In this document: positions 26,678-28,381 of the stretch, one piece after another
How the letters are laid out: the number at the start of each line of letters is the position of its first letter
Numbering within the stretch: position 1 is the stretch's first letter
IMG/VR virus record: IMGVR_UViG_2534681833_000008
Strand: one strand, 5' to 3'
Length of the DNA: 28,381 bases
Source: a virus
Taxonomy: Duplodnaviria; Heunggongvirae; Uroviricota; Caudoviricetes
The notes under the pieces: generated by a model
What the model saw: only the letters and a program-made list of their open reading frames with translations
Database searches by the model: none
What the model was told of the DNA's origin: nothing
Position numbers and translations under genes: made by a program

Positions 26678-27676
26678 TTATCCGTTACCGCGCGACGGTT
26701 TCTGCGTGATAAACGTCTCAAGCATCTTTTCCGCAATTGCCGACCAGGTGTGACACTGGACCTTTTCAGCATTTTTCACGCGATCAACGCGAGCAATAAC
26801 CTCATCCCAATCAATCCGCGACTTGATAACCATATGGTTCACCAAAGCCAGGCGATCTGGCGGAAGGCAATCGGGAGGCGTTAATACCAACGCCCCGCAC
26901 ATTGCCGCCTCAAGTACAGTTAATCCAAGGCTTTCGGGATGCGTAACGATAAACACGTCACTCTTACGCAATTCAGCTGCAAATTCGGTTGCTGGTACCG
27001 GCGTCCGTCTGTATGGGGTTACCGATATATTCCCCGGATCAATGGTAATCAATCCGTCATCGGTCAACGTTCTGGCCTCATACGGAACGGTCAGACGCTG
27101 AAGGTTCATAAGGATACTTAAGGAGTGATCAAACCCACTAACATCAAATGCAGCGTGGTCTACAAAAATACGCAGAACATCGTCTGTTTTGGTTTCCAGA
27201 TGGAACAGATCCTGATTCGCTGCCCATCCAACATGTTTGTTAAAGCGATTATGACGCTCTAACCTGCCTGGATTATCCAGGTACCGCCAGGTATCATCGC
27301 GGACAGTAAAAGTAATATCGACTGGTGCCGAATCCAGCATAGAACCGTCGTATACCTGGGCTACCCATCCAGTGAATCGACGACGCAGTTGCACGCCTAT
27401 TTCCCTGGGCACCGTAGTAAAATACCGCAATCCTGGCGCTAAAATGGCTTTCGCAGAACACGAGGTCGCAGCGGTCAACACAGCTTCAACATAATCCTCC
27501 GGGCTTTCGACGCCGGGGGAATATGGACGATGGTATTGCAATGTTACCCCTGCCTCACTAAAGGCGCAGGCCAGGTTGTAAGCCCACATTTCCGTATATG
27601 TTTTCACATCACTGATAGCTTCAAATTTTCGCCCAATGATCAGGATGTTCATCGGCTTTTCCTCATTCCATTGCAT
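26678..27676 (-). CDS. GT-B fold glycosyltransferase (GT4-like)
   Basis: C-terminal ESLGLTVLEAAMCGALVL resembles the E-x7-E motif region of retaining GT-B glycosyltransferases; ATG overlaps the ban stop (TAATG). Confidence 0.65.
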   Translation of the reverse strand: MQWNEEKPMNILIIGRKFEAISDVKTYTEMWAYNLACAFSEAGVTLQYHRPYSPGVESPEDYVEAVLTAATSCSAKAILAPGLRYFTTVPREIGVQLRRRFTGWVAQVYDGSMLDSAPVDITFTVRDDTWRYLDNPGRLERHNRFNKHVGWAANQDLFHLETKTDDVLRIFVDHAAFDVSGFDHSLSILMNLQRLTVPYEARTLTDDGLITIDPGNISVTPYRRTPVPATEFAAELRKSDVFIVTHPESLGLTVLEAAMCGALVLTPPDCLPPDRLALVNHMVIKSRIDWDEVIARVDRVKNAEKVQCHTWSAIAEKMLETFITQKPSRGNG

Positions 27677-28135
27677 TAATAATCCTCTTGCCAGTCAGCA
27701 CCAGCATAGTTATCAAACCGTGAGTATTGGCCGTTAAAAGCCAATCTCACCGTGCCAATTGGGCCATTTCGTTGCTTTCCGATAATTACCTCGGCAATGC
27801 CCTTCATTTCGCTATCCGGGTGATAAACTTCGTCGCGATACAGAAACATGATCAGGTCTGCGTCCTGCTCAATTGCTCCTGATTCACGTAAATCTGAATT
27901 TACCGGTCGTTTGTCCGCACGCTGTTCAAGCGATCGATTAAGTTGTGACAATGCCACCACCGGTACTTGTAATTCCTTCGCCAACGCCTTCAGTGAGCGA
28001 GAAATCTCGGCAATTTCCAGCGTTCGGTTATCTTGCAGCTCGGGGACGCGCATAAGTTGCAGGTAGTCGATCATAATCATGCTCAAACCACCATTTTCTT
28101 TATAAACACGACGAGCGCGGGAACGAAGCTCTGTA
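27676..28135 (-). pseudogene. ban: 3' fragment of the DnaB-like replicative helicase gene ban (C-terminal about 153 codons), truncated by IS10
   Basis: [30 protein letters not shown] ... [26 protein letters not shown] ... [27 protein letters not shown] aligns with the C-terminus of E. coli DnaB. Homology ends abruptly at 28135, where an IS10 terminus begins; no upstream frame continues DnaB. Confidence 0.85.
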
Positions 28136-28381
28136 CTGAGAGATCCCCTCATAATTTCCCCAAAGCGTAACCATGTGTGAATAAATTTTGAGCTAGTAGG
28201 GTTGCAGCCACGAGTAAGTCTTCCCTTGTTATTGTGTAGCCAGAATGCCGCAAAACTTCCATGCCTAAGCGAACTGTTGAGAGTACGTTTCGATTTCTGA
28301 CTGTGTTAGCCTGGAAGTGCTTGTCCCAACCTTGTTTCTGAGCATGAACGCCCGCAAGCCAACATGTTAGTTGAAGCATCA
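28136..28381 (-). mobile_element. IS10 (Tn10-type) inside end with 3' end of the transposase gene (partial, runs off the window)
   Basis: Terminus CTGAGAGATCCCCTCATAATTTCCCCAAAGCGTAACC at 28136 matches the IS10 inside-end inverted repeat as remembered; the minus-strand ORF ending at 28149 (...THGYALGKL) is the transposase C-terminus. The flanking 9 bp AGCTCTGTA loosely fits the IS10 target preference (NGCTNAGCN). Confidence 0.75.

Follow-up and report, generated by a model that had tools for sequence, protein, structure and literature searches.

The ban helicase gene of a contig assigned to a P1-like phage-plasmid is interrupted by an IS10 end

The 28,381-bp stretch of DNA analysed here (the window) is the whole of contig AIGE01000043.1 of assembly GCA_000249775.2, and at its right-hand end it carries the inside end of an IS10 element, a 3' remnant of ban, the gene for the DnaB-like helicase of phage P1, and an intact dbn. 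Sequence comparison assigns the window to a P1-like phage-plasmid, of which it would be a portion: P1, P7, SJ46, RCS47 and their relatives match its first 25 kb at 96-98% identity over 66-85% of the length, its last 782 bases have 99-100% matches to the ban/dbn region of the same phages and of numerous P1-like plasmids, and the gene order ban, dbn and genes 5, 6 and 24 is common to the window and P1. About 28% of the first 25 kb is without a match to reference P1. An ORF for HsdM, the methylase of a type I restriction-modification system, lies at 9726-11282 on the plus strand (PF02384, E=2.5e-121), and HsdR and HsdS are annotated in the matching region of a related phage, ON470615; this ORF and its neighbourhood, roughly 8.4-15 kb, may be a variable defence island of the P1-like element. 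A Fic/Doc-family toxin ORF (6145-6525, minus strand; PF02661) and the late promoter activator Lpa (4349-4801, minus strand; PF25716, E=3e-57) represent ordinary P1 functions, and an Rfam scan of the whole window gave no matches. The first nine bases of the window (CGAAGTTAT) are the reverse complement of P1 94784-94792, window base 1 being P1 94792, and these positions belong to the lox recombination site, in the 13-nt arm annotated at 94784-94796, which means that both contig ends lie in repeats, loxP at one and IS10 at the other.

IS10 is a 1,329-bp element of the IS4 family that moves by cut-and-paste with a DDE transposase. The 246 bp at 28136-28381 (minus strand) correspond to element positions 1329 down to 1084, where the contig ends within IS10, and they begin with the inside-end terminal inverted repeat CTGAGAGATCCCCTCATAATTTC (28136-28158), which can be read directly, is identical to the IS10 inside end of plasmid R100, and contains a GATC (Dam) site at 28142-28145; Dam methylation acts at the IS10 inside end. 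The Tn10 of R100 (NC_002134.1) has two IS10 copies that differ from each other at 15 positions. The window sequence is that of the tetD-side copy, IS10-Right, at 246 of 246 bases, and it has six differences from the gltS-side copy, IS10-Left, all of them at element positions 1249-1300, within the last 81 bases of the element (window 28136-28216). A reading of the DNA made from the sequence alone, hereafter the sequence-only reading, had assigned the terminal repeat to IS10 and had placed a transposase C-terminus past 28135. Alignment bears out both points, since the repeat is part of the 246-base identity to IS10-Right of R100, and the last 76 codons and stop of the transposase, which runs off the contig end (28149-28381, minus strand; ORF 28149-28379), are the C-terminus of the IS10-Right transposase. 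The likeness to IS10-Right of R100 therefore takes in all 246 bases, including the inside-end repeat, the GATC and the last 76 transposase codons; the window, however, holds only the inside-end 18% of the element, and its IS10 end stands alone beside ban, whereas IS10-Right of R100 faces the tet genes of Tn10. The 76-residue tail is too short for a Pfam match, and the full 402-aa protein in a sibling assembly described below (L003) matches PF01609 (DDE_Tnp_1).

The ban remnant occupies 27676-28135 on the minus strand, with 99-100% nucleotide identity to P1-like phages and plasmids, and begins within codon 302, of which only the third base is left, to run through codons 303-454 to the stop (27676-27678). 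P1 ban (P1_gp077) is 1,365 nt long and encodes 454 aa, and Ban residues 303-454 in the window are identical to those of P1. Read directly, the junction is ...GGAACGAAGCTCTGTA|CTGAGAGATCCCCTCATAATTTCCCC..., with the break at 28135/28136, and an uninterrupted ban would read ...GCTCTGTAGGTGTCAGG... across the site. When window 27600-28381 was used as a megablast query against phages and plasmids, it matched ban/dbn of P1, P7, RCS47, SJ46 and many P1-like plasmids at 99-100%, and every match ended at query base 535/536, that is, at window 28134/28135. In a three-way alignment of the window, P1 and MH422554, the sequences are identical from the T of TACAGAGCT (ban sense) onwards and show no similarity upstream. 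The claim that IS10 breaks up ban, and that its inside end forms the junction, is correct to the base according to the alignments and the 246/246 identity, and the coordinates 27676 and 28135 given for the remnant proved exact. Given these alignments, we see chance as no realistic alternative for the match at the junction.

The interruption falls in the middle of the helicase domain profile. The window ORF covers only positions 115-255 of Pfam DnaB_C (E=7e-63), the profile being split by IS10 at positions 115-117, and the break lies between Walker A (ARPSMGKTT, Ban residues 213-221) and Walker B (IMIDYLQL, residues 322-329), so that the window contains no polypeptide that joins a complete N-terminal DnaB domain to a full DnaB_C domain with both Walker motifs. 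Judged by its domain content, the ban ORF of the window is a gene remnant that would not encode a functional helicase. In the sibling assemblies, the N fragment comprises Ban 1-305, and its stop is made by the first IS10 bases (CT C|TGA). On the 3' side, the ORF list contains a fusion ORF of 158 aa (27676-28152, minus strand), in which MRGSLS from the IS10 inside end is followed in frame by Ban 303-454. The ATG of this ORF shares bases with the stop of the transposase (TTATGA), and through the target duplication it carries T303-E304-L305 again. The exact 158-aa protein is found on 11 public contigs. We regard the in-frame fusion as an accident, for which the probability is one in three, and the product as a putative ORF only. 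Because neither fragment has a complete ATPase core, the helicase activity of Ban is expected to be lost.

The 9-bp target site AGCTCTGTA (TACAGAGCT in the ban sense) lies at 28127-28135 and corresponds to ban nucleotides 906-914, codons 303-305; it is the single visible copy of the duplication that flanks IS10 in two sibling assemblies, in which the locus is fully assembled. These siblings, L003 (Logan ERR4096567, a 35.8 kb contig) and L004 (Logan SRR30668528, a 74 kb contig), both have the order Ban N fragment of 305 aa, IS10 transposase of 402 aa, 158-aa ORF and dbn, with TACAGAGCT on either side of IS10. A further assembly, L006 (ENA ERZ24773482), starts at the outside end and carries a complete IS10, the 158-aa ORF and part of dbn; it has no upstream flank and hence only the downstream copy of TACAGAGCT. 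The sibling IS10 is exactly 1,329 bp long (8689-10017 in L003), with CTGATGAATCCCC... at the outside end and ...GGGGATCTCTCAG at the inside end; the insertion amounts to one IS10, tet genes being absent at the ban locus. The sequence-only reading had looked to the DNA beyond the contig for the missing IS10 end, the 9-bp duplication and the 5' remainder of ban, and all three are found in L003 and L004, whose junction is identical, rather than in the window genome itself.

The same assemblies bear on the possibility that the junction is an assembly chimera, in which the end of a P1 contig was mis-joined to reads of an IS10 copy located elsewhere. The junction does lie at the extreme end of a 2012-era draft contig with four single-base insertions, but the same junction, to the base and with the matching 9-bp duplication, occurs in assemblies that are independent of one another and were made with different assemblers from unrelated samples, and the break falls exactly where the IS10 terminal repeat starts, at a target that fits the IS10 consensus. 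We therefore consider a chimera very improbable. The four insertions, relative to L003 and L004, are at window 17739 (A8 vs A7 in the siblings), 23859, 23874 and 25473 (A6 vs A5). They interrupt genes for the tail and baseplate which L003 and L004 have intact; P1 gene 6, for example, encodes 338 aa in the siblings vs two shorter ORFs in the window. The probable cause of these insertions is homopolymer-type sequencing error in the draft; were they real, the prophage would be defective, because a CRISPRi survey of P1 (PMC10695390) found genes 6 and 7 to be essential.

The siblings are also informative about whether a canonical Tn10, with tetA/tetR between IS10-Left and IS10-Right, might sit in ban with the window at its edge, as the sequence-only reading had hinted when it suggested that Tn10 could lie just outside the window and that tetA/tetR should be sought between IS10 copies. 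The tail is identical to IS10-Right of Tn10, and the host thus probably carries or once carried a Tn10-derived IS10. In R100, however, both termini of Tn10 are outside ends, while the inside ends face jemA/gltS and tetD. A Tn10 in ban would place outside ends at both target junctions, and what abuts ban in the window is an inside end. In the siblings, moreover, what separates the two halves of ban is a single IS10, and no tet genes lie there. The suggestion of a nearby Tn10 accordingly did not hold up, and a canonical Tn10 at this site has, in our view, a next to negligible probability.

The relationship between the window and the siblings is close but not one of identity. They share the target nucleotide, the orientation and the 158-aa fusion ORF, whereas the IS10 copies of L003, L004 and L006 are mutually identical and 100% identical to IS10-Left of R100, the window has an IS10-Right-type tail, and the flanking backbones are about 1% apart. 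The window and the siblings are thus not simply one allele, and the structure beyond the contig end is an extrapolation from the siblings. The presence of IS10-Left and IS10-Right types at one site could reflect either separate insertions in the same orientation or conversion by another IS10 copy. Searches aimed at the window genome and its junctions returned the following. At a coverage of at least 80%, a junction-spanning query had no match among phage, plasmid and complete E. coli genome records; exact scans of viral_contigs, genome_contigs and metagenome_contigs gave no hit for the right junction, the source assembly being absent from these collections; and the predicted left junction (outside end, AGCTCTGTA and ban) gave none in an exact scan of genome_contigs. 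For the contig of GCA_000249775.2 that should carry the ban N fragment, exact look-ups of two 305-aa variants, which came from one homology search and a cluster look-up, led to other samples only, and in such an exact look-up a single amino-acid difference would hide a match.

Two other samples show that IS10 has used this site in more than one way. In L012 (SRR31141017) and L016 (SRR17682493), ban codons 1-305 and TACAGAGCT are joined to the inside end CTGAGAGATCCCCTCATAATTTCCCC, the junctions between the inside end and the 5' part of ban lying at 1045-1079 in L012 and at 2114-2151 in L016, and this geometry is opposite to that of the window. The backbone of L016 is of the P1-reference type with tciA-C upstream and so differs from that of L003, which has an SPFH (Band_7) gene upstream. 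The geometry of L012 and L016 represents at least one independent event at the same 9-bp site, and three configurations are hence found at the same nucleotide: an IS10-Left inside end joined to the 3' part of ban, an IS10-Right-type inside end joined in the same way, and, in two samples, an inside end that faces the 5' part instead. Among 14 candidate proteins for the downstream junction of L012 and L016, 12 outside-end fusion ORFs and a 153-aa partial Ban were absent, and the plain 152-aa partial Ban alone exists; these two samples may contain either a simple insertion in the reverse orientation or a segment bounded by two inside ends.

An IS10-mediated rearrangement of the window locus has to be weighed against this background, either a deletion or inversion next to IS10 through which the 5' part of ban was lost or moved elsewhere, or a composite with two inside ends produced by inverse ("inside-out") transposition of a Tn10-like element. 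The contig of the window ends within IS10, the ban N-terminal contig of its assembly was not found, the inside end on the 5' side of ban in L012 and L016 together with a window-type junction would give the geometry of an inside-end composite, and the IS10-Right-type tail is unlike the simple IS10-Left insertions elsewhere. Each fully assembled example of the junction among the contigs displayed is, nevertheless, a simple 1,329-bp insertion, a failed exact-match look-up is weak evidence, and simple IS10 transposition is far commoner than inverse transposition. We therefore regard a rearrangement as unlikely.

The explanation that we consider very probable is that a single IS10 inserted into ban of a P1-like phage-plasmid at TACAGAGCT, splitting Ban and leaving the element reliant on host DnaB. 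One 1,329-bp IS10 would have transposed into ban at codons 303-305 with its transposase co-directional with ban, so that the outside end would point towards the 5' part of ban, with the inside end towards the 3' part that is present in the window. The left junction of the window genome, by extension from a simple insertion, would then consist of ban codons 1-305 ending in ...CCTACAGAGCT, followed by CTGATGAATCCCC, and the products would be the Ban 1-305 fragment and possibly the 158-aa C-terminal fusion. A short-read assembler would have been unable to cross the repeated IS10, and the contig would accordingly stop 246 bp into the element; such a contig break is a routine repeat-induced assembly gap.

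Whether the target site is preferred by IS10 is a separate matter. The IS10 target consensus is NGCTNAGCN, or NRCNNNGYN in its relaxed form (PMC4574204), and AGCTCTGTA agrees with four of the six specified bases of the former and fully with the latter. Within ban, five sites agree at 5/6 and 57 at 4/6, while 21 fit the relaxed consensus. Contigs with a break close to the target were considered as hotspot evidence and rejected, because they came to light only through queries with partial Ban proteins of matching length, and the contig counts for other partial lengths are similar. In contigs from unrelated samples, the ends of L008-L011, L014 and L017-L019 and the starts of L024-L028 lie within a few nucleotides of the ban target and carry no IS sequence; such near-site breaks probably reflect the exact partial-protein look-ups. 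The look-ups were keyed to this exact site and offer no comparison of its usage with that of other sites in ban. It is unlikely that TACAGAGCT in ban is a natural recurrent hotspot of IS10 in P1-like phage-plasmids. If recurrence did exceed target preference, it could mean that plasmids which have lost Ban are selected for while in the plasmid state, one conceivable benefit being relief of interference with host DnaB.

With regard to the neighbouring gene, dbn (26678-27676, minus strand), identified from the P1 annotation and possibly encoding a glycosyltransferase, is intact on the 3' side of ban, and its start overlaps the ban stop. The encoded protein matches Pfam Glycos_transf_1 with E=1.5e-5, slightly under the curated cut-off. 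A predicted promoter, P1dbn (27897-27929, minus strand), mapped from NC_005856 and identical to that of P1, is retained between IS10 and dbn, and a consensus promoter/terminator scan of window 27500-28381 found nothing, including at P1dbn, so that P1dbn in the window is a weak prediction only. IS10 has an outward promoter, pOUT, at its outside end (Simons et al. 1983, as listed in PMC4574204), which in the orientation of the window would point away from dbn.

In the CRISPRi survey of P1, knock-down of ban gave an efficiency of plating of 1.2, and both ban and dbn were scored as non-essential (PMC10695390), in line with D'Ari et al. (1975), whom that survey cites. As ban is dispensable with a functional host DnaB, the phage-plasmid should still replicate and grow lytically, and the proposal that replication would depend on host DnaB once ban is lost is consistent with the CRISPRi results. 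The expected phenotype is that of classical ban-negative P1, which can grow on dnaB+ hosts (PMC10695390, citing D'Ari et al. 1975). Compared with those P1 mutants, the lesion here arose naturally, by insertion of IS10 at codons 303-305, and is carried by a wild P1-like plasmid that has an hsdM-like ORF.

Both IS10 and ban are already fully known and match reference elements at 100% identity, and the present case is an ordinary IS knockout of a dispensable gene. For annotation, two ban fragments and an IS10 should be recorded as a disrupted gene together with a mobile element, and the label "partial helicase" should be avoided for the proteins. That IS10 recurs at this site provides a small testable case of natural IS10 target preference, with little weight beyond annotation, and the locus adds a further natural example of the dispensability of ban in P1-like phage-plasmids.
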